From Candidatus Woesearchaeota archaeon (GTDB lineage Archaea > Nanobdellota > Nanobdellia > UBA10117 > ARS21), in assembly GCA_964344605.1 (NCBI GenBank), contig CAYFNR010000001.1, positions 23,439-87,438 of the forward strand: a stretch of DNA of 64,000 bases. Reading direction: 5' to 3'. A program made the position numbers and the translations under genes. Positions within the stretch are counted from its first letter, which is position 1. Each line of letters opens with the position of its first letter. This document shows, in pieces, positions 40,858-61,444 of the stretch. The notes beneath the pieces are model-generated. The model made no database searches, had not been told where the DNA came from, and worked only from the letters and a program-made list of their open reading frames with translations.

Positions 40858-40907
40858 GCCCCTTTCTACTGAGCAAGTTATTTAAGTCTAACCATATAAA
40901 TAAGGAA

Positions 40908-44287: not shown

Positions 44288-44295
44288 AAAGTGAA

Positions 44296-46659: not shown

Positions 46660-48009
46660 ATGGAAAATTTGTACCCTTATACTTTGGATAAGCACCAAAA
46701 TAAACCAAAACCATATCATTTCATTGAATATGGTGGGAAAGATATAATTACAGAATTCAAAGAATCTAGGGCAGCCGCTCTTAAGTACTTTGATGATACT
46801 GAAAGCAAACAATATACTTTGTTTCGTTTGTCTAACTCTGATAAGACGGCTATGGAGAAATTTAATACTGGAGAGAAAGTAGAAACAAAGCAATTGTTAG
46901 AAGAGCTATGTTATTATTTGTTTTCAGGAGAAGATATGGCAGAGTATAGGGACATGTTTGAGGAATTACGCAGAATGTCAGAGCTTAGGAAACTTAAGAA
47001 TAGTTATGGTGGGAAATTTGGTGGGAGTGGAGCGGATGTAGAAACATATGTTTTTTTGGCAAATGCTTTGAGTTTACATCATGAAACAACTGGAGACTTG
47101 CAATCGCTGAGTACTTTGCTTAAGACAAATGACCGAATTATATCGATGAAAGAAGATTTGAACAAAGAAAGAAGATACTTAGCTGCTAGAGCTATAGAAC
47201 AAGAAAGCTCGCATCTTAGAAAAATCTACGCTTCTCTTGAAAATCGTCCCCTTGGAGATAGACTTAATCCAATAGAATCTAGTAAGCCTTCTTTAGAGAA
47301 AATACAAAGATTAGGCTTACTTGCACAAGATTCTCCAAGATCTAGAGCATATATCCAAACTCTGGCACAAAATGGACTGCTGCCCGAGAGAGCAATTATA
47401 CTGAGTAAAGATGTTGAAGATTATGGTTTAGGAGAGGTGGTAGAAAATCCCTTCTTTGATACTCATGAGAAACTCACGGAAACCATATCTTATTATGATA
47501 TACCTTACCAGATGGTGCAAGCGAACAACTTCAACGACCAAAAAGTTGTGGATGCAGTAAAGGATAGTGATGGAGATTATTTCGTGTTTAGTGGGTCAGG
47601 GATACTTAGGAAAGATATTTTATCTACAGGCAAAAAATTGATACACATACATCCAGGCAAACTTCCTGAGTTTAGAGGCTCAACTGTTATATATTACACT
47701 CTTCTTTCAGGAAATGTTTGTACGGCATCAGCTTTTGTTATCAGTGATAAAATAGATATGGGAGAAGTTATTACTTCAAAAGAATTTTTGCCGCCAACCC
47801 CAGACATGGATAATGGCAGGGTTTATGATCCATATATTAGAGCGAATGTTCTTGTGGATGTTATTAGGGAACTGAGAGACAAAGGAAAACTGGAAACCTA
47901 TACACAAAACAAAGGTGGCCAGACTTATTATATTATACACCCTATCCTCAGAACACTAACTGATGCGTATGTGCGTGATGAAATACAGTCGTTAGAAGAT
48001 ATAGTTTAA
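46660..48009 (+). CDS. Protein with a C-terminal formyltransferase-like domain and an unknown N-terminal ~250 aa
   Basis: LIHIHPGKLPEFRGSTVIYYTLLSG and ISDKIDMGEVI resemble the formyl_trans_N core, but His replaces the catalytic Asn of the NxH motif. Confidence 0.55.
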   Translation: MENLYPYTLDKHQNKPKPYHFIEYGGKDIITEFKESRAAALKYFDDTESKQYTLFRLSNSDKTAMEKFNTGEKVETKQLLEELCYYLFSGEDMAEYRDMFEELRRMSELRKLKNSYGGKFGGSGADVETYVFLANALSLHHETTGDLQSLSTLLKTNDRIISMKEDLNKERRYLAARAIEQESSHLRKIYASLENRPLGDRLNPIESSKPSLEKIQRLGLLAQDSPRSRAYIQTLAQNGLLPERAIILSKDVEDYGLGEVVENPFFDTHEKLTETISYYDIPYQMVQANNFNDQKVVDAVKDSDGDYFVFSGSGILRKDILSTGKKLIHIHPGKLPEFRGSTVIYYTLLSGNVCTASAFVISDKIDMGEVITSKEFLPPTPDMDNGRVYDPYIRANVLVDVIRELRDKGKLETYTQNKGGQTYYIIHPILRTLTDAYVRDEIQSLEDIV

Positions 48010-48785
48010 GTTGATGAATTGTAAAATCTCTTCAAGCTATTTTCTTCAGCCCAAGCAAGCGCTTTTTCATAATCATTAACTGTATCAAATTCCAGCCAAC
48101 CTTGTGATATTTTTATTGCTTTGACTTTTACGCCATTATCTATTAGTGCTTGGAGAAAATCGGTCATGTAACCTTCTTTGAGAGAGGGAGAATTGTACCA
48201 CGGCTTATCCCAAAACCTATTTTTTGCTCGACCATATACTTTTTCTGCTTTATTTAAGATACCTTTTGAGAATTTTACCATCCCGATATATCTTGCGTCG
48301 ATATCTTTATTTATTGGGTTTGGGTCTCCTAAAGAGACTATATTATCTGCGTCCAATTCAAGACTTTCAGTATCTTCTTTATCACTTCCATGCCTGGCCA
48401 TCCAATAATCTCTCCAGTTTATATCAACAACACATCCTACTTCACCTTCAAAATCAATAACTTTTCTCAATACATCTTCTTCGAATAGAATATCTCCATA
48501 AATCATTAAGATGTCATCATCGAATTCTTTTTTAGAAAGGAAAAAATTGACTAACATATTTACACCAGACTCAGCTTGCTCTAGGTATTTTACTCCTTCT
48601 ATATCTATTTTATTGGACAGGTACCCTCTTACAACAATTATGTCTGTTATACCACATTCACGCAATAAGTCCACTTGTCTTTGGAGGATGGTTTTTCCTA
48701 AAAAAGGGAGCATGCATTTGGGTATAGTTTTAGTGTATTTTTTTAGCCTAGTTCCTTCTCCTGCAGCCAATATGACGGCTTTCAT
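48006..48785 (-). CDS. LicC-type nucleotidyltransferase (Cj1416-like candidate cytidylyltransferase)
   Basis: MKAVILAAGEGTRLKKYTKTIPKCMLPFLGKTIL N-terminal signature. Last gene of a three-gene minus-strand unit. Confidence 0.8.
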   Translation of the reverse strand: MKAVILAAGEGTRLKKYTKTIPKCMLPFLGKTILQRQVDLLRECGITDIIVVRGYLSNKIDIEGVKYLEQAESGVNMLVNFFLSKKEFDDDILMIYGDILFEEDVLRKVIDFEGEVGCVVDINWRDYWMARHGSDKEDTESLELDADNIVSLGDPNPINKDIDARYIGMVKFSKGILNKAEKVYGRAKNRFWDKPWYNSPSLKEGYMTDFLQALIDNGVKVKAIKISQGWLEFDTVNDYEKALAWAEENSLKRFYNSST

Positions 48786-49393
48786 CTCCAGAATAACCTC
48801 CTCTCTAAAAAAGCTTTAATTAACTTTTTATTAACTCCTTCATTTGGACTGGGTCTTTCTGGGTGCCATATAAATCCCGCGATGGGTTTGTTAGGATGGA
48901 ACAAGCCTTCCACAGTACTATCTTCAGCTATTGCAAAGGGTTTTAATTCTGGAGCCAAACTATTTTTTTGCATCCCATAATCATGAAATGAATTGACCTC
49001 AAATTCTTTACCAATAAGTTCCGCGACCCTTTCTTCAGTGATACTAACTTTGTGATTTTTTGATGTGTGGTTGTCTACTTCTACAAGTTTTCCTCCAAAG
49101 AATAGGTTAATGAATTCAATACCTTTACATATACCTAAAATTGGTATATTCTTTTCCAAAGCTTTTTTTACAAGTTTAGACTCTGTTTCATCTCTGGCTT
49201 GTGTTGCTTCGCCCCCACTTAGAATAATACCTTGAACTGGAAGGGCAAGGTACTCCTCAGTAAGTCCTGGTACATTAGGTACAGGGATTAGTGTTACTCC
49301 AAACGATTTGAAATATTCAACATACGGCCTTTCTAGGTAGTCTACTGTATTGTACATTTCTTTTCTCGATCGCTGAGATATTAAGATCAGCAT
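48782..49393 (-). CDS. Class-I glutamine amidotransferase-like / peptidase C26 hydrolase (Cj1417-like candidate)
   Basis: 203 aa with the nucleophile elbow LGICKGIEFIN, plus NSFHDYG and the GFIWHPE His/Glu region. Confidence 0.8.
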   Translation of the reverse strand: MLILISQRSRKEMYNTVDYLERPYVEYFKSFGVTLIPVPNVPGLTEEYLALPVQGIILSGGEATQARDETESKLVKKALEKNIPILGICKGIEFINLFFGGKLVEVDNHTSKNHKVSITEERVAELIGKEFEVNSFHDYGMQKNSLAPELKPFAIAEDSTVEGLFHPNKPIAGFIWHPERPSPNEGVNKKLIKAFLERRLFWR

Positions 49394-49394
49394 T

Positions 49395-52271
49395 TTATTT
49401 CACTATTTTAATGTTCTCCTTTTTACAATCCAATAATAACGTTTTTCCACCTTTAATCTGTTCGAATAATTCACCGCACCCGATTGCGGCCGGAAGTCCG
49501 AACTCTGCGCAGCGTATGGACATATGGGAAGCGACTCCACCATACTTGGTGATTAGACCAGCAGGCTTTTTTGTGAATATCCAATCGTAACCTGGATCTC
49601 CATTTTCTATAAGTACAATTTTATTTTCTAAGTTTGGGGTTGTATCATTGCCAGTCAAAACAAAAATATCTGCTTCTACTCTCTTTTGTGTCGTAAAATT
49701 GGGTTTTGGTTTGTAGGAGGATACGACTTCAAAATCTTTCCAGGATTGTATGATTGGTGGCAAGATTAGGGAGTTATTTATTCGGCGCTCTCCGATGCGA
49801 TGTTCTATTACTGTTTCTAATATAGATTTAATTTTTCCTATATCTTCTATTTCCGAAGCAAGCTTTATAGAATTAATATCTAACTGAGATAATAACTCTC
49901 TTGAAAATCCCAAGTCTCTCCCAGCATCCGCAATTAACTCCATTGCATCGCTAAGATTTTTAGAAAACTCAAATTTCGAAAATTCTCTAGACTCTAACGC
50001 GTCTTTCGTAAACGCGAAAAGTTCTTTTGAGTTGAATATGAGACCGTGCTCTTTTAATATATCTGAGATTTTTTTGTGAACGGCACCGTCAATTTCGAAA
50101 CTTTCCTTATTTTCTTGCTGTATTGAGTTCAACTTTCCACCTAATAAATCAGGATTTTTATCATACCTCTGTACCGTAATGTCATACGTTCCCGGACGTA
50201 GGTGCCCATATAGATTAAGGAATTTTTCTTTGCTGAGTTCGCCGTTAACTAAGGTATTAAAATCATCGTTCATTTTGGAAGCTACCGTGTATATGGAATT
50301 CATGAAGTTCTGATAAAAGGTTTTTTCAATAATACCTTCTGTCGATAAGCTGTTCAAAATTATTTTACCAATAAAAGCAAGTCTTGCTAACCTTGAGAAC
50401 TGGACAGTCCCTTGAGACACACAATTATCAAGTAAGTCCACAGCTAGACTTAGTTTTTCTTGTGTAGAGACTCCTTTCGAAACTTTATCATGAATTTTTT
50501 TCCTGAAAGCTTCCATATTTTTTGCTGTGTTTAGATCTGTTTTAATATCTTCTTTGTTCGCAAATAAGTTATTGGTCAAATCTAGTAACGCTGTCCTGAG
50601 TTCAGCTATTTCTTGGTTAGAGAAACCAGCTTCCTTCAGCTCTTTCGAACGTTTTTCAAAACCCAAATCATAACAAGTATACAGAACTTTAAACTCAACT
50701 TTATCTTGTAGCTCTTGATTATTTCTCAATTTGTTTATGTAAAAATCAACCAGTTTTCCCCTTAATTTTTTTGAAACTGGACTTGGTACAAATGAGTTAA
50801 ATGTATTCCTCACATTTATATATGGTTTATTTCCAAAAAGAACGACAAGCTTTGCAGGGTTGACATCGTAGTAGTTTTGAGATGTCCTTGCCTTGTGCCA
50901 GGCTGAATCTGTAATTATGTAATCATATAAAGAGTAATCTAGATAATTAGGATTTGATCCAATTATTTCAGCAGGGTTCCAATCGGGCATGTCGGCAAAG
51001 ATAGTGTTATCTCCTGCTAAATGTTCTTGCCTTTGCGAAATGTTCGAGAATTGTTGTTTTAGGTCTTCAATTTTTTCTTTCACTTCAACGTCTAGATTAT
51101 AAGAGGATTTTATATTTACACTCATAGGTCTGACTTGAAAGATTACGACTTCCCCATCTTTATTTACAGCAAATTCTATATCCAATTCCATGTTCGGTAA
51201 GAGTGATTCAATCTCTTTTACAGCAAGAAGAACTTTTTGTAAGTTCGCGGGGAAATTTTCCTCGTCGCAAGAACGCGAAATATATACAACTTTATTCTCA
51301 AGACCTTTTGTTACTGTGTCAGTTAAACCTGTAACATCATCGTAATTGATTACGTAATAGGGATTGTTCGTTTCCAACTGTCTTGTAAAAATAACTCCAC
51401 TACATTTTGGGTCTTTTGTCTGTCTTTGTACAAGTATTTGATTGCTTGTATGGTAGGAGTTTTTTTTAGTATATGTTTCAATTACTTTTTCAACTGCAGT
51501 TTTAATTTCTTTTTTGTCCCTGACTTTAACATCTAGTTCACTATAGAAGTAACCTGCCATGGAGTTTTCAAGAGAATCTTCATTCAATGCAGAACTCCTG
51601 ACAACAATTTTTTCTGAGCCAGAGAAAAACTCTTGTATTTGATTTAAAACATATTGTTCATTACTTTCCCATTCAGCTACAGTAAATACGAAAGAATCCT
51701 CAATCTTTCCATTTTTTAGAGTCAATTGTAGCGATTTGAGAGTGTCGGCTTTTGTAGATATTTTCGCTTTTGCCGAGCCTTCAGAAAACTCTTGTATTTT
51801 AAAAAACTTGGTGAAGGTCTCAAAATCTTTGAATAAATTTTTATAATGTTCAAACAGTTTATTAATTATTCTAAAGTCAGATAGACCAGCATAGTAAGGA
51901 TGTTGTACAAGCCTAGCCCCAATTTGTTGTAAGCTTGAAGCTGCAGGATATTTTCTCCAGTTAGACCCTAACACAACCAATAATTCAACGTCCGGGAATC
52001 TTTCCCTAATCTTCTTTAAGTTAATTATTGGGTCAAAGTCTTCTTGTATTATTACTTCATCAACACATTTTAATCCAGATACTACAGCTTTTCTTTCTTC
52101 TAAATTCGCTATTGGTTTTCTTTTGGTTGTTTGGGTAGCTTCGTCGCTAAGTACACCACAAATATGATAATCCCCTATGGAGTTCGCAAATTCCAAAGAT
52201 CTAAGATGGCCGTAGTGGAACAAATCAGCAACTACTGGACTGTAAGTGATACGTTTAATTTTCTTAGACAT
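49395..52271 (-). CDS. Fusion of a TagD-like cytidylyltransferase domain and a PEP-synthase/PPDK-like phosphohistidine kinase (Cj1418-like candidate amide kinase)
   Basis: 958 aa. N-terminal HxGH (DLFHYGHLRS). ATP-grasp PPDK_N-like blocks IVVRSSALNEDSLENSMAGYFYS and DIEFAVNKDGEVVIFQVRPM. C-terminal swivel domain GGVASHMSIRCAEFGLPAAIG, with the His codon at 49524-49526. Confidence 0.85.
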   Translation of the reverse strand: MSKKIKRITYSPVVADLFHYGHLRSLEFANSIGDYHICGVLSDEATQTTKRKPIANLEERKAVVSGLKCVDEVIIQEDFDPIINLKKIRERFPDVELLVVLGSNWRKYPAASSLQQIGARLVQHPYYAGLSDFRIINKLFEHYKNLFKDFETFTKFFKIQEFSEGSAKAKISTKADTLKSLQLTLKNGKIEDSFVFTVAEWESNEQYVLNQIQEFFSGSEKIVVRSSALNEDSLENSMAGYFYSELDVKVRDKKEIKTAVEKVIETYTKKNSYHTSNQILVQRQTKDPKCSGVIFTRQLETNNPYYVINYDDVTGLTDTVTKGLENKVVYISRSCDEENFPANLQKVLLAVKEIESLLPNMELDIEFAVNKDGEVVIFQVRPMSVNIKSSYNLDVEVKEKIEDLKQQFSNISQRQEHLAGDNTIFADMPDWNPAEIIGSNPNYLDYSLYDYIITDSAWHKARTSQNYYDVNPAKLVVLFGNKPYINVRNTFNSFVPSPVSKKLRGKLVDFYINKLRNNQELQDKVEFKVLYTCYDLGFEKRSKELKEAGFSNQEIAELRTALLDLTNNLFANKEDIKTDLNTAKNMEAFRKKIHDKVSKGVSTQEKLSLAVDLLDNCVSQGTVQFSRLARLAFIGKIILNSLSTEGIIEKTFYQNFMNSIYTVASKMNDDFNTLVNGELSKEKFLNLYGHLRPGTYDITVQRYDKNPDLLGGKLNSIQQENKESFEIDGAVHKKISDILKEHGLIFNSKELFAFTKDALESREFSKFEFSKNLSDAMELIADAGRDLGFSRELLSQLDINSIKLASEIEDIGKIKSILETVIEHRIGERRINNSLILPPIIQSWKDFEVVSSYKPKPNFTTQKRVEADIFVLTGNDTTPNLENKIVLIENGDPGYDWIFTKKPAGLITKYGGVASHMSIRCAEFGLPAAIGCGELFEQIKGGKTLLLDCKKENIKIVK

Positions 52272-52288
52272 TAGTTGCCTCTTGTGAG

Positions 52289-52302
52289 ATATTTATTTAA
52301 AG
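52289..52302 (-). promoter_or_regulatory. TATA-box candidate for the 52271 kinase operon
   Basis: The minus strand reads ctttaaataaatat, ending about 18 nt upstream of the ATG, in a divergent intergenic region. Confidence 0.35.
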
Positions 52303-52384
52303 ATAATGAAAGAAAAGTACACAGATTCGAATTGTAGAATAGTATTTGATAATCTTTATTAACTAATTACTTCAACAAGCCAGA

Positions 52385-53167
52385 ATGGCCGAGAAGAGCC
52401 TGTACCAAATTTATATGAAGGATGGCATGTATCAATCTAATTTAAGAGGCCATAGTCTGTACTTAAAATTTATTCGTTGGTTGGGATTTTTTCCATTTTA
52501 CATATTTCATAAATTAGGTCTCACAGCAAATGCAGCGTCCTTTGTAGGGTTCTTAATAGAATTGCTTGGGGTTGGACTTTTCCTAACGTCACATTATTTT
52601 TTGGCGGCGCTTATGATTTTCATAGGTGTAGTTTTTGATTTCTTTGATGGTGTTCTCGCAAGAACGCGAAATGAAGTTGGAACTCTCAATACAGCCCTAC
52701 TCTGTAGTTTACATCATTTCTTCACACCTACTTTAGTTCTAGCTGCAGGATTTATTAATTACTATTTTTTGACTAAAGATGTTGATGTCCTTTTGCTTGC
52801 TCTTGTTGTAGGGGTGGCTTCTGCCATGACTTTTCAACTTATTATAATACGTGGCAGAGCCCTGTTTAAGTACTATCCTGGCTTTGCAAACAAACAAGAA
52901 GAAGTTCTTGTCAATAGGAGACATAGTATAATATTCAGAACAGAACAGTTGCTGGAGAGAATTATTGATCACGGATATGCTATGATATTAGTATATGCTG
53001 TTAATCCTTTGGTATTCATTGGTCTGTTTTCAATTTTGATACCAGCAAGGCTTTTGAGCGTTTTCACTTATTTTTACTTTACAAACAGGAAACTCGAGAA
53101 GCAACTTGTAAAGTATAAGAAAGAACATACTAAAGGAGAAGGAGGTAGAAAGCTATATAATATTTAG
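52385..53167 (+). CDS. CDP-alcohol phosphatidyltransferase-like membrane protein, divergent motif
   Basis: 260 aa, polytopic. DFFDGVLAR is present, but the downstream GxxxDxxxD is replaced (TRNEVGTLNTALLCSLHH). Confidence 0.65.
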   Translation: MAEKSLYQIYMKDGMYQSNLRGHSLYLKFIRWLGFFPFYIFHKLGLTANAASFVGFLIELLGVGLFLTSHYFLAALMIFIGVVFDFFDGVLARTRNEVGTLNTALLCSLHHFFTPTLVLAAGFINYYFLTKDVDVLLLALVVGVASAMTFQLIIIRGRALFKYYPGFANKQEEVLVNRRHSIIFRTEQLLERIIDHGYAMILVYAVNPLVFIGLFSILIPARLLSVFTYFYFTNRKLEKQLVKYKKEHTKGEGGRKLYNI

Positions 53168-53184
53168 CGTTAAGGTGATATAAA

Positions 53185-54051
53185 ATGGCAGAAGAAAAGA
53201 AAGGAAATCCAACAACTTTTTTAGATTGGGGAAAAACAACTGGAAACCACAGAGTTACATATGCCTATCATGAAGGTCAAGAGGCCTATGATCTGTATAT
53301 GGGTGCAAGATATGTTTGCGATATGATTGCATATCGCAATGGAGAAATAGATAAAGTGTTTCATCCAGAAGACTTAAGAGATAATACCAGAAAATACTCG
53401 GGTCTTGTTGCATGCGATAATGGCTCAGACGAACTTACTTTTTATGAAGTTGGTTCTTCAGTAATGGGTGTTATAGATGCTTTGGAGTATTTGAATATTG
53501 AGTATAACCAACTAGATATCAAAGATACTAAATTCCTTGGAGTTGATAACTCTAAGTGGATGAATGCTGTTGCTGAATATACTCATGAGCAGTACAATTT
53601 AAAATTATGGGAAGATGTAAAAGATGCTGAAGGTGTAGAGTGTGATTTGTTCTTTGCAAAAGGTGTTTCTTTGATGTATGCTTTCCAAGATGAAGACGCC
53701 ATGTGTGACGTGCTAAAAAATAGCAAACTCGCGATATTTGATTACACTTTTTCTTTGGATGGGAAAATACAAGATCATACTGGAACAGGATTAGGAGTTA
53801 CTTATTTGAATTTAGACAAATGTAAAGGAATTCTCGAGAGAGAAAAGGGTAAAATATTGGTGATGAAGCCCTATCAAATCAAAACTTACCATCAAGGAGA
53901 CCCGACTAAAGCCAGTTTTGATTGTATATATGGGGAGAGGGAAATAATTGATAAGTATCTTGCTGATTTAGAAGATAAAACTGGTGAGAATCTATACAAC
54001 TATGGAAATCCAAAGTTCATAAAAGGTGGTAGAGTTTACAACATAGAGTAG
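53185..54051 (+). CDS. Hypothetical soluble protein, possible Rossmann-fold methyltransferase
   Basis: 288 aa, preceded by AAGGTGAT. A weak motif-I-like FYEVGSSVMG is followed by FLGVDNS and CDLFFAKGVSLMYAF. The assignment is tentative. Confidence 0.45.
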   Translation: MAEEKKGNPTTFLDWGKTTGNHRVTYAYHEGQEAYDLYMGARYVCDMIAYRNGEIDKVFHPEDLRDNTRKYSGLVACDNGSDELTFYEVGSSVMGVIDALEYLNIEYNQLDIKDTKFLGVDNSKWMNAVAEYTHEQYNLKLWEDVKDAEGVECDLFFAKGVSLMYAFQDEDAMCDVLKNSKLAIFDYTFSLDGKIQDHTGTGLGVTYLNLDKCKGILEREKGKILVMKPYQIKTYHQGDPTKASFDCIYGEREIIDKYLADLEDKTGENLYNYGNPKFIKGGRVYNIE

Positions 54052-54052
54052 T

Positions 54053-54820
54053 CTACCTCTTCTTTTCTATTTTTTTCAATATATTATATGTAGACTTGAA
54101 AAAAACAACAGATCTAAGTGGTACAAATAATCCGTAAAAGATTAAGTAGGAGCTTGTTATATTATACTCAAAGAAATAAAGCAGCAGGACAACAGTAGTT
54201 ATTTCTCTAAGCCGATATGTTGGAAAGGATGCCAATTTTAGAAGTAGTAAATCTTTTCTATTTGCTAACCCTATTTGAGAAGGAATTGCTTTATGCAGCT
54301 TATATGCGCGTCCTTTAACAGCTTCCGGATTTCTTAAAATTACCAACTGCTTTAATAAGAGTAGAAATCCTGTCGCCAATTGAAAAAAACCAGCAGCAAA
54401 ACCTGCATATAATAGCCAGATATCTCCGCTTAACTTGTAAAAACCAAACCCGAGACCAACAAATATGAAAGAGGGGTTGATATGGTGATATGTTCTTCCT
54501 AAGAATCCACTCTGTAATTTCGTAACACCTTTCCTACACCTCGCAACGAGTCCGTCCATATAATCAAAAAACTCTCCAAAATAAAATAGTAGCAGCCCAA
54601 GTGCAAAGTATATAGGCTTTCCAAAAGCAAAGAATAAGGAAGCCAAGAGTATAATTAATATAGAAAGTAGAGTTACCATGTTGGCCGTTATTGGTGTTTT
54701 TAGAATAGCCCATACACAATATACAGCTATTCTCCTAAAAAATTTATACACGATGCTAACTTTAAAATGTCGATCTCTATTATATGCCTGCTTTTTGATT
54801 TCTCTCACACTAGTTTTCAT
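54053..54820 (-). CDS. CDP-alcohol phosphatidyltransferase-like membrane protein, divergent motif
   Basis: 255 aa, polytopic. ITANMVTLLS and DYMDGLVAR are present, and the second half-motif is replaced (CRKGVTKLQSGFLGRTYHH). Confidence 0.65.
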   Translation of the reverse strand: MKTSVREIKKQAYNRDRHFKVSIVYKFFRRIAVYCVWAILKTPITANMVTLLSILIILLASLFFAFGKPIYFALGLLLFYFGEFFDYMDGLVARCRKGVTKLQSGFLGRTYHHINPSFIFVGLGFGFYKLSGDIWLLYAGFAAGFFQLATGFLLLLKQLVILRNPEAVKGRAYKLHKAIPSQIGLANRKDLLLLKLASFPTYRLREITTVVLLLYFFEYNITSSYLIFYGLFVPLRSVVFFKSTYNILKKIEKKR

Positions 54821-56070
54821 TTGAATAACACGTTGAATTTGCTTTTGTCATATAACCCTTCTGAAACTTTTCCGTCGAAGTCTTTTTTATTGAGTAGCAA
54901 ATGGTGCTCGTTGTGGGAAGTAGAAACTAAATCTCCTACAAAAACCGGGCCCTTACAAACCCTTTGCATTTCTTTCACAACTTTGGACGCGTGCTCTTTA
55001 TCTGGGAAATACTGAAAGATGGAATATGCAAACACTTTATCGAAGCTGTTATCTATAAAAGGCAAAATACTCGCTTCTCCAACCACAACATTATTTTTTA
55101 GTATTTTGTTGTGTTTTTTAACCATAGATTTCGCATAATCCATGCCAATATAGTTACACTTTAAATATTGTGCAATCATGCCTGCTCCACATCCAACTTC
55201 TAAAACTTTATCCTTTTCTTTGATATTGAGGATATCTGTTAGTTCGTTTGCAATTTTTCCGATATTAGCACCAGTTAAATCAAAACCATCGAGCCTGACA
55301 AGATCTGAAGTGTCTTCATTTCCTTTACGCTCCCATATCTCTTTCCAATTGAGCTTGAAGGCTTTTTCCAGTTTAGGATAAGTTATTTCCCTGGCTCTTT
55401 GTAGATCCTCCTGTGTATCTATCTTTGTCCAAATAAGGTCTTCAACACATAGAGAAGATATGGGAGTTCCTTTTTTAGCTAATTTTAAGATACCTTCTTC
55501 AAGCCACAACTTCTTATTATCTCTTATTTTTGCCAGTTCATTAACGAAGTCCTTTGTTAATTTAGATATGCCAATAAATTCACCACTGGATTTGTCCCTG
55601 TTCAAATCTTTTCCTAGATTAGTAATATAATTTGACTCGTCTGTGTACACTAAAATTTCATCTCCAGACCCGCTAATTTTTGAAGTTAATATGATATTTT
55701 CCTCTTTGGCAGATAATATTTTTTTAATGGCACTTGGAGTATATAATAAATCGGATTCAATAACTAGCACAGCATCATCTATCAAATCTTTAGCACAAAG
55801 TAAAGAAAATAAACTATCAGTTTCAAGGTATTCGCTGTTATCAACATAAGTTATCTTTATACTATTATATATATTACCCAATCTTCTTTTAATTTTATCT
55901 CCCAAATATCCTGTAACCAAAATTACTTCATTTATTCCATTATGTAATAGTGACTTAAACGAATAATCTAATAAAGATTCACCTTTAATATCTACCAAAC
56001 ATTTTGGCATGTTGTTTGTGAGAGGGCTAAGTCTCCTTCCTTGCCCCGCGGCAAGAATCACAGTTTTCAT
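54817..56070 (-). CDS. Fusion of a LicC-type nucleotidyltransferase and a class I SAM-dependent methyltransferase
   Basis: N-terminal MKTVILAAGQGRRLSPLTNNMPKCLV. C-terminal motif I VLEVGCGAGMIAQYL and motif II-like FDKVFAYSIFQYF. Confidence 0.85.
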   Translation of the reverse strand: MKTVILAAGQGRRLSPLTNNMPKCLVDIKGESLLDYSFKSLLHNGINEVILVTGYLGDKIKRRLGNIYNSIKITYVDNSEYLETDSLFSLLCAKDLIDDAVLVIESDLLYTPSAIKKILSAKEENIILTSKISGSGDEILVYTDESNYITNLGKDLNRDKSSGEFIGISKLTKDFVNELAKIRDNKKLWLEEGILKLAKKGTPISSLCVEDLIWTKIDTQEDLQRAREITYPKLEKAFKLNWKEIWERKGNEDTSDLVRLDGFDLTGANIGKIANELTDILNIKEKDKVLEVGCGAGMIAQYLKCNYIGMDYAKSMVKKHNKILKNNVVVGEASILPFIDNSFDKVFAYSIFQYFPDKEHASKVVKEMQRVCKGPVFVGDLVSTSHNEHHLLLNKKDFDGKVSEGLYDKSKFNVLFK

Positions 56071-56072
56071 TC

Positions 56073-57137
56073 CTAGCTAAGGATATCCTCTTTTTTAATA
56101 TCTTTTAAGGCTCCGAGCAGTACTTCATTATCTTTTTTATTTCTTACTCCTAAACGTATAAATGAATCGGTGTCAAACTCTTTCTGGTTCAGACCTTCTT
56201 TTACCATGAGCCTATGATTATCATATAGTGTCTCAGCTAGCTTTCTAGCACTACCTTCAACTTTACAAAATACTGCGTTTGCGCTGGTTGGATAAGGAGT
56301 TAGGTAAGGTATATCATTTAGATTTTCAAGAAACCATTTAGTATCTTCAACACTTTTAACAATAGATTCTTCATGTTCCTCTTTATAATCTGGAAGCATT
56401 TCGATTATATATTCAGTAACTGAGTTTATGTTCCAAATAGGTAAGTGAGCTCTTACTTTCTTTTTTACATTTTCATTGCTCGTAAGCATGTAACCCAACC
56501 TAAGACCTGCAATGCCAATAGATTTCGTACAGCTCGCAACAACAATTAAATTATCATATTTCGATATAAGTTGTTCTGCAGAGTGCTCCGGACCAGCGAA
56601 AGTCATAAACGCTTCGTCAACAATTAAGTTCACTCCAGAGTTTAATATATATTCAATATCCTTTATAGGTGTAAGATTGCCAACAGGATTGTTTGGATTT
56701 ATTATAACGGCGTATTCGCTGTTTGATTCGTTTACTTCTTCTATTAATTTGTTTGGGTCTAAAATGAAATCATTTTCTTCGTCCAAAAGATATTTATGGA
56801 TTTTATCCTCTGGCAATCTCACAAATTCATTGAAAGTAGGCAGTGCGACTGTGACTTTAGTTATCACATGGTCATTAAGCATACGAATGAGTTCAGAGGA
56901 ACCATTTCCTATAACAAGGTTGTCTGCATTGAAGTAATCTTCATCTTTCCATTTAGCAAGTAGTTCTGCTATTACACGCTGACTTGAGGGGTAATAATTC
57001 CCTATTTTTGGCAGTTGGTCCGCCAGCTCCTTATAAAACTCTTTTGTTGGAAAATAGTGATTGAATAAATAGTGAAAGTCCAAGTGGTCATCTCGCCAAT
57101 AACCTCCGTGCCTGCTTCTTATCTCGTCAATTCCCAA
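56073..57137 (-). CDS. Class I/II PLP enzyme of the HisC/CobD type (candidate phospho-amino-acid decarboxylase or aminotransferase)
   Basis: N-terminal HGG, then NPNNPVG, LIVDEAF and the PLP-Lys context SCTKSIGIAGLRLGY. TTG start 2 nt after the upstream stop; there is no ATG until about residue 84. Confidence 0.75.
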   Translation of the reverse strand: MGIDEIRSRHGGYWRDDHLDFHYLFNHYFPTKEFYKELADQLPKIGNYYPSSQRVIAELLAKWKDEDYFNADNLVIGNGSSELIRMLNDHVITKVTVALPTFNEFVRLPEDKIHKYLLDEENDFILDPNKLIEEVNESNSEYAVIINPNNPVGNLTPIKDIEYILNSGVNLIVDEAFMTFAGPEHSAEQLISKYDNLIVVASCTKSIGIAGLRLGYMLTSNENVKKKVRAHLPIWNINSVTEYIIEMLPDYKEEHEESIVKSVEDTKWFLENLNDIPYLTPYPTSANAVFCKVEGSARKLAETLYDNHRLMVKEGLNQKEFDTDSFIRLGVRNKKDNEVLLGALKDIKKEDILS

Positions 57138-57139
57138 GA

Positions 57140-58978
57140 TTAAACACCTTCAAATATTTCCTCTGCCATTTTAAGATCATTTACATCATCAATCTCAAAC
57201 CACTTACCTTTCGTCTCAGGTGCTGAGATTGTACATCCCTTAGTTACGATATTCTTAAAAATTGTTTCAATTGGTTCCGTTCCGCCAGTTTCTTCAATGT
57301 GAGTCTTTAGCTCAGGTTTGAGCCAAGTATTAATGAACTCTTTCGAAAAGCTATGTATATTTACAGTTTTGTATTTGTTCTCAATTTTGAATTCCTCTGG
57401 CCTGTCTTTTTTATGTATCCACGCCTTGACTATCCCATTATCAACTTCCACAAAAGACCCATCTAACTTTGAGTTCCACTTTTCTACCAAGGTTTTGTTC
57501 TTGTGTTTATCATCTATGAACGATTTAAGTAACTTGCTTTCAAAGAAGATGTCACCTTCTAAAATTAACAGATCTTCATCCAAATTTTTTATTCCAATCC
57601 ATAAAGAATAGCTGTTGTTTGTTTTATCATAAATATTACTTTTGATATATTTTATTTTAATCCTTTTAAAGGAATCTCCAATTTTTTCTTGGATTTTGTT
57701 CGCCAAGTATCCTACAACAAGTGTAACTTCGTTGATTCCAAATTCATTTAATCTACTAAGTGTGTTTTCAAGTATTGATTTACCATTTATTTTAACAAGA
57801 CATTTTGGTATATCGTCAGTGACAGGCTTTAAGCGAGTTCCCATGCCAGCAAGTAAAATAATAGCTTTTTTTGGTTTAACCGTTTTTGAAGTAGATGGAC
57901 TAAAACCAACTCTACATAATACTTCTTTAAAATTTTTAAGGAAGCTGTCAATATCTTCTTTGAACAAATTCCCAAGAGTTGCAACTCTAAATATACCTTT
58001 GTCTAAAGTACTTTGTCCGGAGTATATTGTAAAACCTCTCTTTTTCAGTTCGTCGTGTATTACCCAGTAATCCATATCTTTTGGTAAGTGTATTGAAGTG
58101 AGTATATTTGATTGCAAGTTATCTGGGAGTATAAATTTAAACCCCATTTCACGTAGACCTTCGCGCATATACTCCGCGTTTTCTTTCTGCCGTTTAATTC
58201 TGTTCTCTACTCCTTCTTTAATTAGCTCATCAAGTGCTTTGTCCAAGGCAAAAAATAATTGTACAGCTGGAGTAAAAGGTAGCTGCTTACTTTTTTCTGC
58301 ACTTTCCCATTGATTATACAGATTAAAATAGAAACTACGAGATTTACCTTTCAGTTTTTCTATATCACTTTTTTTCGCTATAACAAAAGAGATTCCAGGA
58401 AAACTTTGTAGACATTTATTGGCACTAACAGTACAGAAATTAATATTATCTTTTACTACATCTATTTTATATCCCCCAAGACTGCTGATAGTATCTGCAA
58501 CGGTAATTACACCATATTTTTTGGCCAACTGTCCTAAGTCATGTAGAGGTAGAATCATTCCAGTTGTGGTCTCGTGGTGCACAAAAACCATATGTGTAAT
58601 ATCTGGGTTGGATTCTAACTTTGAGTCTATTTGTCCCAAATCAATTGGTTTTAATGGGTCAAATTTGAGCTCAATTAGAGGTATATTGTAGCGTTCTGTT
58701 ATTTCACCAAGTCTTTTTGCATACTTACCATTATTTATCAGTAAAACTTTTCCGTGAATAGAAGATATAATTGCTTCATTACATCCTGTACCTGATGATA
58801 CGAAAGCAACAACTGAATGAGTCTCTTCACCATTCACAACTTTCAAAAGTTTCTTTCTAACTTTTGTTAAAACCTCAAAGAATTCTGACTCTCTGTGACA
58901 TATATCGTGGGTCTTGATAGCATTTCGGACTCCATTAGAAACATTTGTTGGGCCCGGATTAAAGAGCATATTTTTCAT
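57140..58978 (-). CDS. Fusion of a 2-aminoethylphosphonate:pyruvate aminotransferase-like domain (class V) and a LicC/PntC-type nucleotidyltransferase
   Basis: PhnW-like blocks LFNPGPTNVS, VHHETTTGMILPL, SANKCLQSFPGISFVIA, FRVATLG. The C-terminal half has AIILLAGMGTRLKPVTDDIPKCLVKINGKSIL. The track start at 59020 is TTG; the ATG at 58978 or 58969 is preferred. Confidence 0.85.
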   Translation of the reverse strand: MKNMLFNPGPTNVSNGVRNAIKTHDICHRESEFFEVLTKVRKKLLKVVNGEETHSVVAFVSSGTGCNEAIISSIHGKVLLINNGKYAKRLGEITERYNIPLIELKFDPLKPIDLGQIDSKLESNPDITHMVFVHHETTTGMILPLHDLGQLAKKYGVITVADTISSLGGYKIDVVKDNINFCTVSANKCLQSFPGISFVIAKKSDIEKLKGKSRSFYFNLYNQWESAEKSKQLPFTPAVQLFFALDKALDELIKEGVENRIKRQKENAEYMREGLREMGFKFILPDNLQSNILTSIHLPKDMDYWVIHDELKKRGFTIYSGQSTLDKGIFRVATLGNLFKEDIDSFLKNFKEVLCRVGFSPSTSKTVKPKKAIILLAGMGTRLKPVTDDIPKCLVKINGKSILENTLSRLNEFGINEVTLVVGYLANKIQEKIGDSFKRIKIKYIKSNIYDKTNNSYSLWIGIKNLDEDLLILEGDIFFESKLLKSFIDDKHKNKTLVEKWNSKLDGSFVEVDNGIVKAWIHKKDRPEEFKIENKYKTVNIHSFSKEFINTWLKPELKTHIEETGGTEPIETIFKNIVTKGCTISAPETKGKWFEIDDVNDLKMAEEIFEGV

Positions 58979-59041
58979 TGGCCTAATTTTAGAGTAGTCG
59001 CTTAAAAGGATTTCGCGCAATTATTCTATATTACTCTTCTA

Positions 59042-60691
59042 CTATTCTTTTTGGGACAGCATTTCACAAGCATCTTTATAATTTTGGAAAGTATTCATTT
59101 CTATCCAACCTTCACTAACTTCTTGCGCGTATATGGTATGTCCTTGATTAATCATTTCTTGTAAGGTGTGATCCATATCCAAATTTTTAACTTCACCCTT
59201 TTCCACCAATTTTCTTACAGTATCCTTAAATGAGTTGGTTCCTTTCTTCGAAAGCAAGGTTACTCCACAAAACTCAAAGTTTGCCTCAGTCCTAGGTATG
59301 TCTTGTCCTATTTGAGAAATTATGTTATACTTTCGAGGATTTAGAATCCTAGAACCTTTAATTGGAGAGTATTTAGCAACTACAAGATCTAGTTTTTTGT
59401 CTTTGAATTTGGACTTAGTATAAGATTTATCAATTGATATAGTTATGTCTTTATCACTTTTTAATAACTTTTCAATCAGTTCAGGCTCAAATAAAATGTC
59501 TCCAAAAAGTACCAAAACACGACCTTCCAGTTCTTCTTTGGCAAGCATTATTGAATGTATAGATCCTGAATTTTCATAATCTTCATTAATAATGACGGAA
59601 ACATCTTCAACATCAGAAGCATTTAATCTTTCATGATTATATCCTGCTACTAAGATTATCTTCGTTATTCCTAAGCTTTTCAGACCCTCTATATTCCGTT
59701 TTAGTAAAGATTTACCATTTATGTCAAGTAATGCCAAAGGAGTTTCTGGCAAAACATGTGCTAGGGATTTTGGTGGACGCCCCGCGATAGGTATTATTGC
59801 AGTAATAGACTCTTTGTCTAATCCTAGAAACCGTTCTTCATTAGCCTTCATTTCATAAGTTCCTTGTAGCTCAAACACCTCTTTTAACGTAGCTAGTTTT
59901 GGGCTGACTGTTTTTACTCCACCAGATATTTGTATCTCATCCAGAGTTTCCTTAACGGATTTTATTATAGAACGCATTACGTGATTTGCATAAATTACCA
60001 TTTTTATTTTAGGGTATCTTGATATCATTTTTTCATCCATGCCTGAGTATGTTGTTGGCACAATTACTAGTGGCACGTTTTTATCCCATTTCTTTACGAA
60101 CTCTATTATCTCTGTAGGGTCAGATTTTTTAGAATGTATCATTATACCATCAACACCAGCTTCAACGTACGCCTTCGCGCGTTTCATTGCTTCTTCTTGT
60201 CCCCAGCCTGCAATCAAAGCTTCTACTCTTGCTATGACCATAAACTCTTTTGTTTCCTGTGCGTTTTTTGCCGCCATTATCTTTCCAACAAATTCAGAAA
60301 CAGAGGCCAGTTCTTGTCTGCCGCCAGCAAGTAAACTATTTTGCTTTGGAAATTTTTTATCTTCCATGATGACCCCGGCGATTCCAGCAGCTTCAAACTT
60401 TTTAATCATCCTTATCACATTCATGGAATTACCATATCCTTGATCAACGTCCACGACCACAGGTATTGATACAGCATCGTTCATACTTATAGCAGCATTC
60501 AGATAGTCAGTCATAGTTAAGATATTTGCATCTGGGACTGCATGAGATGCCGATACTTCCAAAGAGGATGCCCAAACACCTTCGAATCCACCCCCCTCTA
60601 CTAATTTAGCAGTGGCTCCGTTGTGAGCACCAACAATCCGAATTAACTTTTCACTTGCAAATAATTCTCTTAGTGCAGCTGCTTTATTCAT
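59042..60691 (-). CDS. pepM: Phosphoenolpyruvate mutase fused to a C-terminal (divergent) nucleotidyltransferase domain
   Basis: IVGAHNGATAKLVE, VDVDQGYGN, and the PepM-discriminating EDKX5NS motif as EDKKFPKQNS (codons 60335-60364). The C-terminal ~250 aa is LicC-like with a degenerate G-loop (PIAGRPPKSL). Confidence 0.9.
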   Translation of the reverse strand: MNKAAALRELFASEKLIRIVGAHNGATAKLVEGGGFEGVWASSLEVSASHAVPDANILTMTDYLNAAISMNDAVSIPVVVDVDQGYGNSMNVIRMIKKFEAAGIAGVIMEDKKFPKQNSLLAGGRQELASVSEFVGKIMAAKNAQETKEFMVIARVEALIAGWGQEEAMKRAKAYVEAGVDGIMIHSKKSDPTEIIEFVKKWDKNVPLVIVPTTYSGMDEKMISRYPKIKMVIYANHVMRSIIKSVKETLDEIQISGGVKTVSPKLATLKEVFELQGTYEMKANEERFLGLDKESITAIIPIAGRPPKSLAHVLPETPLALLDINGKSLLKRNIEGLKSLGITKIILVAGYNHERLNASDVEDVSVIINEDYENSGSIHSIMLAKEELEGRVLVLFGDILFEPELIEKLLKSDKDITISIDKSYTKSKFKDKKLDLVVAKYSPIKGSRILNPRKYNIISQIGQDIPRTEANFEFCGVTLLSKKGTNSFKDTVRKLVEKGEVKNLDMDHTLQEMINQGHTIYAQEVSEGWIEMNTFQNYKDACEMLSQKE

Positions 60692-60710
60692 GCGCCGAAA
60701 TCTTTGATAA

Positions 60711-60725
60711 ATGTATATAAGTATT
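60711..60725 (-). promoter_or_regulatory. TATA-box candidate for the pepM operon
   Basis: The minus strand reads aatacttatatacat, with TATA ending about 22 nt upstream of the pepM ATG (leaderless-type spacing). Confidence 0.35.
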
Positions 60726-60739
60726 ATGAAAACGAAGTC

Positions 60740-61444
60740 TCATTTATTTTTCATAGACTTCTTATCATATTTTAATACAGTTCTTAATTGCATTGCTAGA
60801 ATTACTATCCAAAATAAATTACCAAATGTTGCAAAGAAAATTAGAATCCATTCTGCTAAATTAAGTGCTACCAATATTGGCAGGAACACAAATAGTGTAG
60901 ATGTCCCATATACAAACCGCAGTTTGTTCTTTTTATTTATCAATTTTATTTTTCTCTTTGACAGTAAAGGATCAAAATCATATTTGAAAATATAAATTAT
61001 AAGAAATTGTAGTGGGAAGCATATTGCTGCTAGTGTTCCCCAAAGTAGCCAAGTATATTCTCTTAGTCCTAAAGCTACAGACAGGAAAATAAAAGGCAAT
61101 GATAAGTATCCAATCATACTGTCCAGCCACTTACCTTTCAGGCTTGATAATTTCATTACTCTAGCCATTTTTCCATCGAGGTGATCCAAAATGTAAGTCA
61201 AGAAAATTAAAATAGCACCGAGTAGTCTGTAGGTATAAGGGTTGTTGCTGAAGCCACTAAAACCTAAAAATGCCAGACCACCAATCATTACAAAAATTGA
61301 AAGATAAGTTATTTGATTTGGAGTTATACTTGTATATCTGAGCATAAATTTGGTTAAAGGTATGGTTACTTTCCTAAATAAATATCCCAAAATATCAGTT
61401 TCTTTGTTTTTAACCATTAGCTTCAAGTCATATTTTTTCTTCAT
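60740..61444 (-). CDS. CDP-alcohol phosphatidyltransferase family membrane protein
   Basis: 234 aa, polytopic. The motif DHLDGKMARVMKLSSLKGKWLDSMIG matches DxxDGxxARx8GxxxD but has Gly in place of the final Asp. Confidence 0.7.
   Translation of the reverse strand: MKKKYDLKLMVKNKETDILGYLFRKVTIPLTKFMLRYTSITPNQITYLSIFVMIGGLAFLGFSGFSNNPYTYRLLGAILIFLTYILDHLDGKMARVMKLSSLKGKWLDSMIGYLSLPFIFLSVALGLREYTWLLWGTLAAICFPLQFLIIYIFKYDFDPLLSKRKIKLINKKNKLRFVYGTSTLFVFLPILVALNLAEWILIFFATFGNLFWIVILAMQLRTVLKYDKKSMKNK

Follow-up and report, generated by a model that had tools for sequence, protein, structure and literature searches.

Putative phosphoramidate and phosphonate head-group modules lie side by side in a surface-glycan island of a Woesearchaeota-like DPANN archaeon

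Two head-group modules in one window

A stretch of 64,000 nucleotides from a Candidatus Woesearchaeota archaeon (GenBank assembly GCA_964344605.1, contig CAYFNR010000001.1, positions 23,439 to 87,438 of the forward strand), referred to here as the window, was analyzed. It contains one set of genes predicted to make phosphoramidate (P-N) head groups and, next to it, a second set predicted to make phosphonate (C-P) head groups. A preliminary description of this DNA had treated both as one locus. The reading that we favor, with a probability of about 60%, is that they are two independent head-group modules of known kinds, which are neighbors within a surface-glycan island of a Woesearchaeota-like DPANN archaeon. 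The features are listed in Table 1.

The core of the P-N module is a trio of genes like Campylobacter jejuni Cj1416-1418, which encode the kinase K958, the amidotransferase-fold hydrolase GAT203 (GATase) and the nucleotidyltransferase (NT) NT259. The C-P module contains pepM, for a phosphoenolpyruvate (PEP) mutase, and the gene of a 2-aminoethylphosphonate (AEP) transaminase (AEPT). The trio, pepM and the three CDP-alcohol-transferase-like proteins that had been described were all recovered by profile searches. The five NT domains reported within about 15 kb were each found, with Pfam and NCBIfam, at the positions given for them or no more than a few tens of bases away. All five lie within 46660-61444 and none lies in the remaining 49 kb of the window. 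When the five domains were used as phmmer queries against all window open reading frames (ORFs) of at least 90 aa, the matches were confined to these five genes, so the clustering is real rather than something seen throughout the window.

The gene set forms two separate transcription units, not one. The first, on the minus strand, consists of the co-directional genes K958, GAT203 and NT259, as seen in the ORF layout. The second, also on the minus strand, runs from 61444 to 54053 in the order CDP234, PepM-NT, AEPT-NT, a CobD-like gene, NT-MT and CDP255, and is tightly packed, with intergenic gaps of 48, 21, 2 and 2 bp followed by a 4-bp overlap. The plus-strand pair CDP260-U288 (52385-54051) stands between these two units, and FT449 is on the plus strand, convergent with NT259. 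The earlier proposal of a factory for several cytidine-activated phosphorus head groups fits the gene content, but not as one gene set. Scans of the window for tRNA genes and Rfam families gave no match, and a scan for sigma-70 promoters and terminators was set aside as not meaningful for an archaeon.

Table 1. Coordinates of the two modules, their genes and domains, and flanking features (window positions).
Feature	Position	Strand	Assignment and matches
P-N module	46660-54051		
C-P module	54053-61444		
FT449	46660-48009	plus	C-terminal half formyltransferase-like (motif IHIHPGKLPEFRGS), Pfam Formyl_trans_N 31.8 bits
NT259	48006-48785	minus	Stand-alone LicC-like NT, motif LAAGEGTRL; NTP_transf_3 47.6 bits, NTP_transferase 38.1 bits
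GAT203	48782-49393	minus	Class-I glutamine amidotransferase-fold hydrolase, GICKG nucleophile motif and HPE
K958 (958-aa protein)	49395-52271	minus	CyT_N and glutamine-kinase-type portion
Glutamine-kinase portion of K958	~49395-51776	minus	Cj1418-type; PPDK_N ATP-binding and PEP-utilizers swivel domain
CyT_N of K958	~51861-52253	minus	HxGH-type cytidylyltransferase domain (FHYGH), residues 7-137 of the kinase; CTP_transf_like 49.4 bits
CDP260	52385-53167	plus	Pfam CDP-OH_P_transf 23.9 bits (gathering cut-off 22)
U288	53185-54051	plus	Soluble protein; homologs beside the trio in five loci (L008, L016, L028, L029, L057)
CDP255	54053-54820	minus	Last gene of the pepM operon; Pfam CDP-OH_P_transf 30.7 bits (cut-off 22)
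NT-MT417	54817-56070	minus	PntC-like cytidylyltransferase (aa 1-259) and class-I S-adenosylmethionine (SAM) methyltransferase (aa 274-388), Pfam
CobD354	56073-57137	minus	Pyridoxal phosphate (PLP) enzyme of the HisC/CobD subfamily; Aminotran_1_2 91.8 bits
AEPT-NT626	57140-59020	minus	AEP transaminase (aa 16-369) and PntC-like NT (aa 384-620)
PepM-NT549	59042-60691	minus	PEP mutase (aa 1-290) and NTP_transf_3 (aa 296-540); PEP_mutase 185 bits
CDP234	60740-61444	minus	First gene of the pepM operon; Pfam CDP-OH_P_transf 41.9 bits (cut-off 22)
Flanking glycan-assembly genes	39970-46596		GT2, GT-C-like membrane protein, Wzx-type flippase, U399, GT4 (Pfam)
643-aa protein	starts ~63950, just past window end; L121:10618-12549	minus	NT/AAA_33/HAD

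The two modules seldom meet in relatives

Relatives of the kinase were sought in a collection that represents each GTDB species by one genome; of 599 stretches matched by pattern, at least 568 were confirmed. Eighty kinase loci with up to 10 kb of flank (1.24 Mb of flanks in total) were retained and are referred to by number. The presence of partners in these loci was scored by tblastn with the window proteins, and recurrent kinase neighbors beyond the trio were found by unbiased ORF clustering. An amidotransferase homolog lay beside the kinase in 68 of the 80 loci and a LicC-like NT homolog in 59; on these counts, archaea and bacteria alike conserve the trio as a unit. A pepM gene within 10 kb of the kinase was found at one locus (L047, Kiritimatiellae) and an AEP transaminase at none of the 80. 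Three further close metagenomic kinase relatives (L128, L129 and L130) did not contain pepM.

The closest PepM-NT relatives (L083/84, L086 and L087) share 57-60% identity with the window protein. These loci and the DPANN or DPANN-like loci L125, L126 and L127 carry NT and CDP-alcohol-phosphotransferase-like (CDP-OH) genes, and neither the kinase nor the amidotransferase was found at any of these seven PepM loci. Since pepM is so rare beside the kinase and the kinase was not seen beside pepM, the modules appear to be independent units that meet only sporadically. The preliminary description had proposed a survey of this kind and named a lack of linkage in relatives as a sign of chance juxtaposition. 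The linkage found is close to none, and comparative genomics does not support one system that pairs C-P and P-N chemistry.

Among the matches listed, the closest kinase relatives were L020 and L128, with 60% identity. Both keep the synteny GT2-Wzx-GT4-FT-NT-GATase-kinase (GT, glycosyltransferase), and genes of the ATP sulfurylase, sulfatase and phosphodiesterase families occupy the position of the phosphonate module (L020:3997-9931 and L128:6016-9913). This gene set may be a sulfation module that serves as an alternative decoration. In both loci, a HIT-domain protein is inserted between GATase and NT.

The phosphonate branches of the PepM relatives also vary and include AEP, phosphonoacetate and valinophos-like reductive branches. 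In L126 (Nanoarchaeota GCA_016782615.1, 11667-17128), PepM-NT is followed by a zinc alcohol dehydrogenase (ADH), a semialdehyde dehydrogenase, a 2-hydroxyacid dehydrogenase, an Fe-ADH and a phosphoglycerate kinase, and no phosphonopyruvate decarboxylase (Ppd) was seen in the cluster. From its gene content, this looks like a valinophos-type reductive route from phosphonopyruvate in a DPANN archaeon.

The P-N module resembles the Campylobacter phosphoramidate pathway

According to the pathway description in PMC11800397, Cj1415-1418 of C. jejuni make CDP-phosphoramidate 3'-phosphate, the precursor of O-methyl phosphoramidate (MeOPN), from glutamine, ATP and CTP; Cj1418 is the glutamine kinase, Cj1416 the cytidylyltransferase, Cj1417 the hydrolase and Cj1415 a further kinase. 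Because these enzymes have been characterized, steps could be assigned to the window proteins. Residues 167-957 of K958 match NCBIfam PRK05849 with 846 bits (cut-off 501), its His916, in the swivel-domain stretch GGVASHMSIRCAEFG, is invariant across an alignment of 19 homologs, and homologs carry the JGI name 'glutamine kinase'. By family and motif, K958 is a predicted L-glutamine kinase. The top NCBIfam match of GAT203 is NF045546 (gamma-glutamyl-CDP-amidate hydrolase), over the full length with an E value of 2.6e-28 and 99.5 bits against a cut-off of 250; it is the probable counterpart of Cj1417 and is adjacent to and co-directional with the kinase. NT259, matched by its LicC-like fold and position, is the positional counterpart of Cj1416 and a candidate CTP:phosphoglutamine cytidylyltransferase. 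In other lineages, an NT259 homolog is fused to the N-terminus of the kinase (L047; the class of about 1020 aa).

In the pathway proposed here, the kinase part of K958 would phosphorylate L-glutamine at its amide nitrogen through a phospho-histidine at His916, NT259 would couple the phosphoglutamine to CMP to give CDP-L-glutamine, and GAT203 would strip the glutamate to leave cytidine diphosphoramidate. The likeness to the MeOPN system lies in the PPDK-like kinase with its swivel-domain His, the LicC-like NT and the amidotransferase-fold hydrolase, and also in the arrangement of the three core genes, which are adjacent and co-directional within a surface-polysaccharide locus. A CobD-like serine-phosphate decarboxylase, Cj1436, is encoded in the C. 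jejuni capsule locus as well. In contrast to C. jejuni, the host here is an archaeon, the kinase bears an extra HxGH cytidylyltransferase domain, and the glycan context is of the Wzx/AglB type rather than an ABC-transporter capsule. MeOPN transfer uses Cj1421/22-type transferases, whereas the recurrent partners here are formyltransferase-like, U288 and CDP-OH-like proteins (Cj1421/22 types were not searched for).

The extra domain of K958, CyT_N, has the cytidylyltransferase domain of Fom1 from fosfomycin biosynthesis as its best solved relative (PDB 5x3d, E 4.5e-12), followed by ethanolamine-phosphate cytidylyltransferase and TagD (1coz). In Fom1 this domain is fused to a PEP mutase, whereas in the window it is fused to a glutamine kinase. 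The CyT-kinase fusion occurs in 29 of the 80 loci, and 24 of these also keep the LicC-like NT. Because the fusion is common in loci without phosphonate genes, the substrate of CyT_N is probably not a phosphonate. The glutamine-kinase family as a whole comprises 1,519 clusters at 50% identity (E up to 1e-30), with stand-alone (about 790 aa), CyT-fused (about 960 aa) and LicC-NT-fused (about 1020 aa) architectures and rare fusions to adenosine phosphosulfate (APS) kinase.

FT449, U288 and CDP260 were assigned to the P-N module because, as recurrent partners of the trio, they co-occur with it in relatives. FT449, which is not within the C. jejuni gene set listed in PMC11800397, has homologs in 22 of the 80 loci (tblastn). 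Its N-terminal domain of about 260 aa has no family assignment, and in many bacteria its halves are two separate adjacent genes beside the trio, one formyltransferase-like and one of about 200 aa (clusters 12 and 6; L008, L028, L051, L052 and others). The formyltransferase motif, IHIHPG, has a His at the position of the canonical catalytic Asn. The U288 family had no Pfam or PDB match, even by profile search. Single-sequence AlphaFold2 models had a mean predicted local distance difference test score (pLDDT) of 34.7 for U288 and 34.0 for FT449.

The C-P module resembles PntC-type phosphonate clusters

The PepM motif EDKKFPKQNS aligns with the NS of the mutases 5unc and 1m1b, while the phosphonopyruvate hydrolase 2dua has TS at this position. 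NCBIfam gave a tie between mutase and hydrolase, with 304.4 bits each and both below their cut-offs. This tie had raised a hydrolase identity, which was rejected on NS versus TS, and by this motif the domain is a true PEP mutase. In the NT domain fused to PepM (59072-59806, and in 17 homologs), the canonical nucleotide-binding motif LAAGxGxRL, present in the other three LicC-like domains, is replaced; IIPAAG followed by a variable loop is found throughout the PepM-NT clade.

The AEPT domain scored 395.6 bits with TIGR03301, above the cut-off of 360.8. It belongs to class V, and its PDB matches are AEP transaminases and Tde1415 of Treponema denticola. Both domains of AEPT-NT match Tde1415 (PDB 6pd1, E 2.5e-75, query 10-372 on chain 242-613). 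The domain order is opposite, NT-AEPT in Tde1415 and AEPT-NT in the window, and L083 and L086 share the window order; the opposite orders indicate that this two-domain fusion arose independently at least twice. The NT domain of NT-MT also has the PntC domain of Tde1415 as its best PDB match (E 1.1e-31). The NT domains of NT-MT and AEPT-NT are thus PntC-like and candidate phosphonate cytidylyltransferases; in such enzymes, the preferred substrate is a matter of steric detail. The methyltransferase fused to NT in the pepM operon is the only SAM methyltransferase domain in the locus, and the kinase-less cluster L083 has both an MT-NT fusion and a free methyltransferase.

Within the pepM operon, CobD354 is flanked by AEPT-NT and NT-MT, each 2 bp away. 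Its NCBIfam matches are CobD threonine-phosphate decarboxylase (TIGR01140, 141 bits against a cut-off of 290) and HisC (126 bits), and its best PDB match is 6oux, a 'threonine phosphate decarboxylase-like enzyme' (E 2.5e-33). The HisC/CobD subfamily acts on phosphorylated substrates, and the nearest characterized relatives are threonine-phosphate and serine-phosphate decarboxylases. Three roles are conceivable for CobD354, namely supply of phosphoethanolamine for a third head group, decarboxylation of phosphonoalanine to yield AEP, or PalB-like transamination of phosphonopyruvate.

In the proposed pathway, PepM would make phosphonopyruvate, which the AEP transaminase, and probably also the CobD-like enzyme, would help turn into an amino-phosphonate (AEP or a close relative). 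The PntC-like NT domains would then produce a CMP-phosphonate, and the fused methyltransferase may N-methylate the phosphonate. The closest characterized or predicted counterparts are the Pnt clusters, namely Ppm-PntC fusions and Tde1415 (PMC6697681) and the Burkholderiales_CDP-OH group (PMC8942020). They share with the window the Ppm-NTP_transf_3 fusion, the AEPT fused to a PntC-like NT, a second or third PntC-like NT and CDP-alcohol phosphotransferase genes in the cluster, with CMP-AEP as the predicted donor for cell-surface decoration. The window differs from them in its operon without Ppd, its reversed AEPT-NT order relative to Tde1415, its NT-methyltransferase fusion, the CobD-like PLP enzyme in the operon, incomplete CDP-alcohol signatures, a DPANN host and aglB as a neighbor.

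The CDP-alcohol-phosphotransferase-like proteins are candidate transferases

CDP260, CDP255 and CDP234 are membrane proteins, each with 3-5 strongly hydrophobic segments by hydropathy. The best NCBIfam matches of all three are archaetidylinositol-phosphate and PIP synthases, far below the cut-offs. The full CDP-alcohol signature is DxxDGxxAR(x8)GxxxDxxxD, with four Asp residues. CDP260 and CDP255 keep DxxDGxxAR and lack G2, D3 and D4, with an HH pair instead; CDP234 is complete except for a D4-to-Gly change. Relatives at L009, L011, L015, L016, L018, L019 and L030 have D4 changed to His. Other CDP-OH-like members beside the same kinase, among the relatives within L004-L072, keep the canonical DxxxD. 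By sequence comparison, D4-to-His and related variants are a conserved subfamily across many lineages and not isolated decay.

Of the 80 loci, 19 have a CDP-OH-like gene no more than 10 kb from the kinase, and in L007, L045, L052, L057 and L072 the two are direct neighbors. In L129 such a gene directly follows kinase, GATase and NT on the same strand, and in L130 it is one gene upstream of the kinase. In DPANN phosphonate clusters, too, CDP-OH comes after NT as a rule (L125 and L127). CDP255 and CDP234 were assigned to the C-P module because both have orthologs in the kinase-less phosphonate cluster L083 (97 bits for CDP255); CDP234 also has an ortholog beside the trio in L006. From this gene context, the CDP-OH-like proteins are the best candidates for transferases that use either kind of cytidine-activated donor, with their incomplete signatures as a real caveat. 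In both modules, their predicted reaction is transfer of the P-X group from its cytidine carrier onto a hydroxyl that belongs to a lipid-linked glycan or a lipid, with CMP released.

The modules lie in a glycan island of a DPANN archaeon

The preliminary description had considered an archaeal host, and the best matches of the DNA polymerase D (PolD) large subunit, DP2, agree with this: every named one is from Woesearchaeota, Nanoarchaeota or a DPANN group. The same holds for the kinase fusion, while the named best matches of PepM-NT are from Woesearchaeota and Nanoarchaeota plus several bacterial phyla. Both PolD subunits, LonB, CDC48 and topoisomerase I are also encoded in the window. By these matches, the host is a Woesearchaeota-like DPANN archaeon. 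Several samples of ENA project PRJEB17505 yielded the same contig on assembly, with identical proteins; it spans 96 kb and is part of a larger genome. A Borg-like element, which low GC and a similar cluster had brought up, was ruled out on the DPANN best matches of the PolD large subunit and two pathway proteins.

Of the glycan-assembly genes described to the left of the modules, GT2, Wzx and GT4 were recovered, whereas the GT-C gene (40908-42779, about 12 hydrophobic segments) matched PMT only below the threshold (20 bits, cut-off 22.7). These flanking genes are syntenic with L020 and L128. U399 (44296-45495) has an NTP_transf_5-like N-terminal region, also sub-threshold, and a P-loop kinase-like C-terminal half with the motif GMDGSGKST; a U399-like protein of 420 aa is present in the phosphonate/AglB cluster L127. 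The left flank also holds an LPG_synthase_TM protein, sugar epimerases/dehydratases and a B12-radical-SAM enzyme.

To the right of the window, a 643-aa protein that combines LicC-like NT, AAA_33 P-loop kinase-like and HAD phosphatase parts contributes a sixth NT domain. Beyond it lie two GT4 genes, a GT2 gene and genes for an 814-aa STT3/AglB, SpoIIM and SecD. The head-group locus therefore exceeds the limits that it had first been given and abuts an N-oligosaccharyltransferase gene, in line with the earlier suggestion of a glycan-associated locus. With glycosyltransferases and Wzx to the left and STT3 to the right, the locus is part of a surface-glycan island that spans from about 30 kb in the window to about 10 kb past its end, at aglB/STT3. 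STT3 adjoins the phosphonate cluster also in L127.

The B12-binding radical-SAM gene (37506-38990, minus strand) adjoins the LPG_synthase_TM gene (39023-39967, minus strand), an adjacency also seen in L125. Radical-SAM genes of this type recur in the DPANN phosphonate clusters L083, L125 (two copies) and L126. By analogy with Fom3 or PhpK, the gene may serve C- or P-methylation of a phosphonate. Its membership in the pepM module was set aside, as it has only 22-28% similarity to the L083 counterpart.

Weighing the alternatives

Several observations weigh against two independent modules of known kinds. No Ppd was found in the window (tblastn with the L086 Ppd, E up to 10) and no gene with a thiamine pyrophosphate (TPP) domain in the 10 kb to its right, which leaves the step after PepM unexplained. 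A Cj1415-type kinase, seen as an APS-kinase-like protein in 22 of the 80 kinase loci and fused to the kinase in some proteins, is absent from the window and the right flank (tblastn with 22 APS-kinase-like queries from related loci, whose family identity was confirmed separately, E ≤ 1e-3). The fourth Asp is missing in all three CDP-alcohol signatures and the third in two, the GAT203 and CobD-like assignments are below the NCBIfam cut-offs, and CyT_N, FT449 and U288 are not accounted for by the pathway steps. In addition, the pairing of C-P and P-N genes recurs in the Cobalt Borg and in L047, and there may be some functional reason for the co-location. Each module is recognizable by its sequence relationship to a characterized system, one to Cj1416-1418 of C. 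jejuni and the other to the Ppm/AEPT/PntC enzymes, and each misses at least one defining feature, namely the Cj1415-type kinase, Ppd or a complete CDP-alcohol signature.

The missing Ppd could mean that AEP is made by a different route, in which phosphonopyruvate is converted to phosphonoalanine and the CobD-like enzyme decarboxylates this to AEP, or that CobD354 is a PalB-like transaminase and phosphonoalanine itself is the head group. The tight packing of the CobD-like gene within the operon is consistent with this, as are its nearest characterized relatives, which decarboxylate O-phospho-amino acids and include Cj1436 (PMC11800397). A PF00155 aminotransferase beside ppm without ppd is a published marker of the phosphonoalanine branch (PMC8942020), and the closest PepM-NT/AEPT-NT cluster, L083/84, also has no Ppd. 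However, L083/84 has no CobD-like gene either, so Ppd may be encoded elsewhere in these genomes, and the contig covers only 96 kb of its own. By the equivalog cut-off, the AEPT domain counts as a normal AEP transaminase, the close relatives L086, L087, L125 and L127 have a canonical Ppd, and the CobD-like enzyme could instead turn phosphoserine into phosphoethanolamine for a separate head group. Because Ppd may lie elsewhere in the genome, we consider the alternative route unlikely. The same gap and the missing D4 of all three CDP-alcohol proteins could also point to a partly decayed locus with dead CDP-OH-like proteins, which would make only phosphoethanolamine-type head groups or none; reduced DPANN genomes often hold incomplete pathways. 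This is very improbable given that all ORFs are intact, with the catalytic motifs EDKxxxxxNS, His916, HxGH, GxGTRL and GICKG plus HPE, that the same contig with identical proteins was assembled from several samples, and that the D4 variants form a conserved subfamily.

A single integrated pathway would lead to a hybrid product, such as a phosphonamidate or a glycan in which both groups are required, or to a co-regulated dual decoration. The adjacency of the modules and the likeness of CyT_N to the phosphonate-activating Fom1 domain are in its favor, and so are the two other cases of pairing. The preliminary description knew of no characterized system that pairs the two chemistries; the same pairing had, however, already been annotated in silico in genes 308-311, 319 and 320 of the Cobalt Borg, an extrachromosomal element of Methanoperedens (bioRxiv 10.1101/2024.11.05.622173, annotation only). 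By annotation, the Borg genes encode a PepM-NT fusion directly beside glutamine kinase, CDP-glutamine hydrolase and NT, together with a PntC-AEPT fusion, a CDP-alcohol phosphotransferase and flippase-like proteins in a glycoconjugate region. In the window, PepM-NT is separated from the kinase by two further genes plus the remainder of the pepM operon. The Borg belongs to a methanotroph, whereas the window is part of a chromosome-like DPANN contig with PolD, LonB, CDC48 and topoisomerase genes, and the Borg CDP-alcohol protein reportedly has an exactly conserved active site, unlike the three window proteins (compared by description). In L047, CyT-PepM, Ppd and Fe-ADH are on the same strand as the NT-kinase fusion and GATase. 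The three pairings differ in their fusions and in their phosphonate branch (AEP here and hydroxyethylphosphonate, HEP, in L047), which points to independent assembly, and repeated mosaic assembly in glycan islands fits these differences better than a dedicated dual pathway. The co-occurrence counts, the two transcription units, the sulfation-type genes in the place of the phosphonate module in L020 and L128 and the frequent CyT-kinase fusion in loci without pepM argue in the same direction, and we give the integrated pathway little credence. The acceptor could also be a membrane lipid rather than a glycan, with a Kennedy-type route onto scavenged archaeol-type core lipids that yields phosphono- or phosphoramido-lipids. 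CDP-alcohol phosphotransferases are classically lipid head-group enzymes, which also provide the best, though far sub-threshold, NCBIfam matches; an LPG_synthase_TM protein is nearby, the host is a DPANN archaeon, and many DPANN archaea are thought to rely on host lipids. The modules are nevertheless embedded among Wzx, GT2, GT4 and GT-C-like genes beside STT3/AglB, a glycan context that recurs in L127, L129 and L130, the catalytic signature is incomplete, and no lipid-synthesis genes lie within the locus. Bacterial ppm clusters with CDP-OH genes are predicted to yield phosphonolipids (PMC8942020), which counts for a lipid acceptor. Taken together, a lipid acceptor seems rather unlikely.

A more detailed scenario is that DPANN archaea put phosphoramidate and (N-methyl)aminoethylphosphonate on N-glycans or scavenged lipids through D4-less CDP-alcohol phosphotransferases that take cytidine diphosphoramidate and CMP-phosphonates directly, with no need for Cj1415 or Cj1421/22, the phosphonate being made through phosphonoalanine and a CobD-like decarboxylase without Ppd. 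As a whole, this scenario is unlikely.

Significance

The locus is a real mosaic decoration island, and the co-location of two chemistries by itself defines no new system. Of greater interest as leads are the DPANN-type P-N module, with its CDP-OH-like partners, and the pepM operon, in which the CobD-like enzyme and the lack of Ppd offer a possible alternative route to AEP as a testable lead. To our knowledge, phosphoramidate decorations have been chemically characterized only in Campylobacter. The glutamine-kinase family is widespread and common in DPANN archaea, and this P-N chemistry may therefore extend far beyond the Campylobacter literature. The DPANN partners of the trio, that is, the CDP-OH-like, formyltransferase-like and U288 proteins, are candidates new to the study of P-N decoration. 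If the CDP-OH-like proteins are transferases, P-N groups would be added by a second and simpler mechanism, as would C-P groups in the neighboring module, and the surface of uncultured episymbiotic archaea would become more accessible to chemical study.

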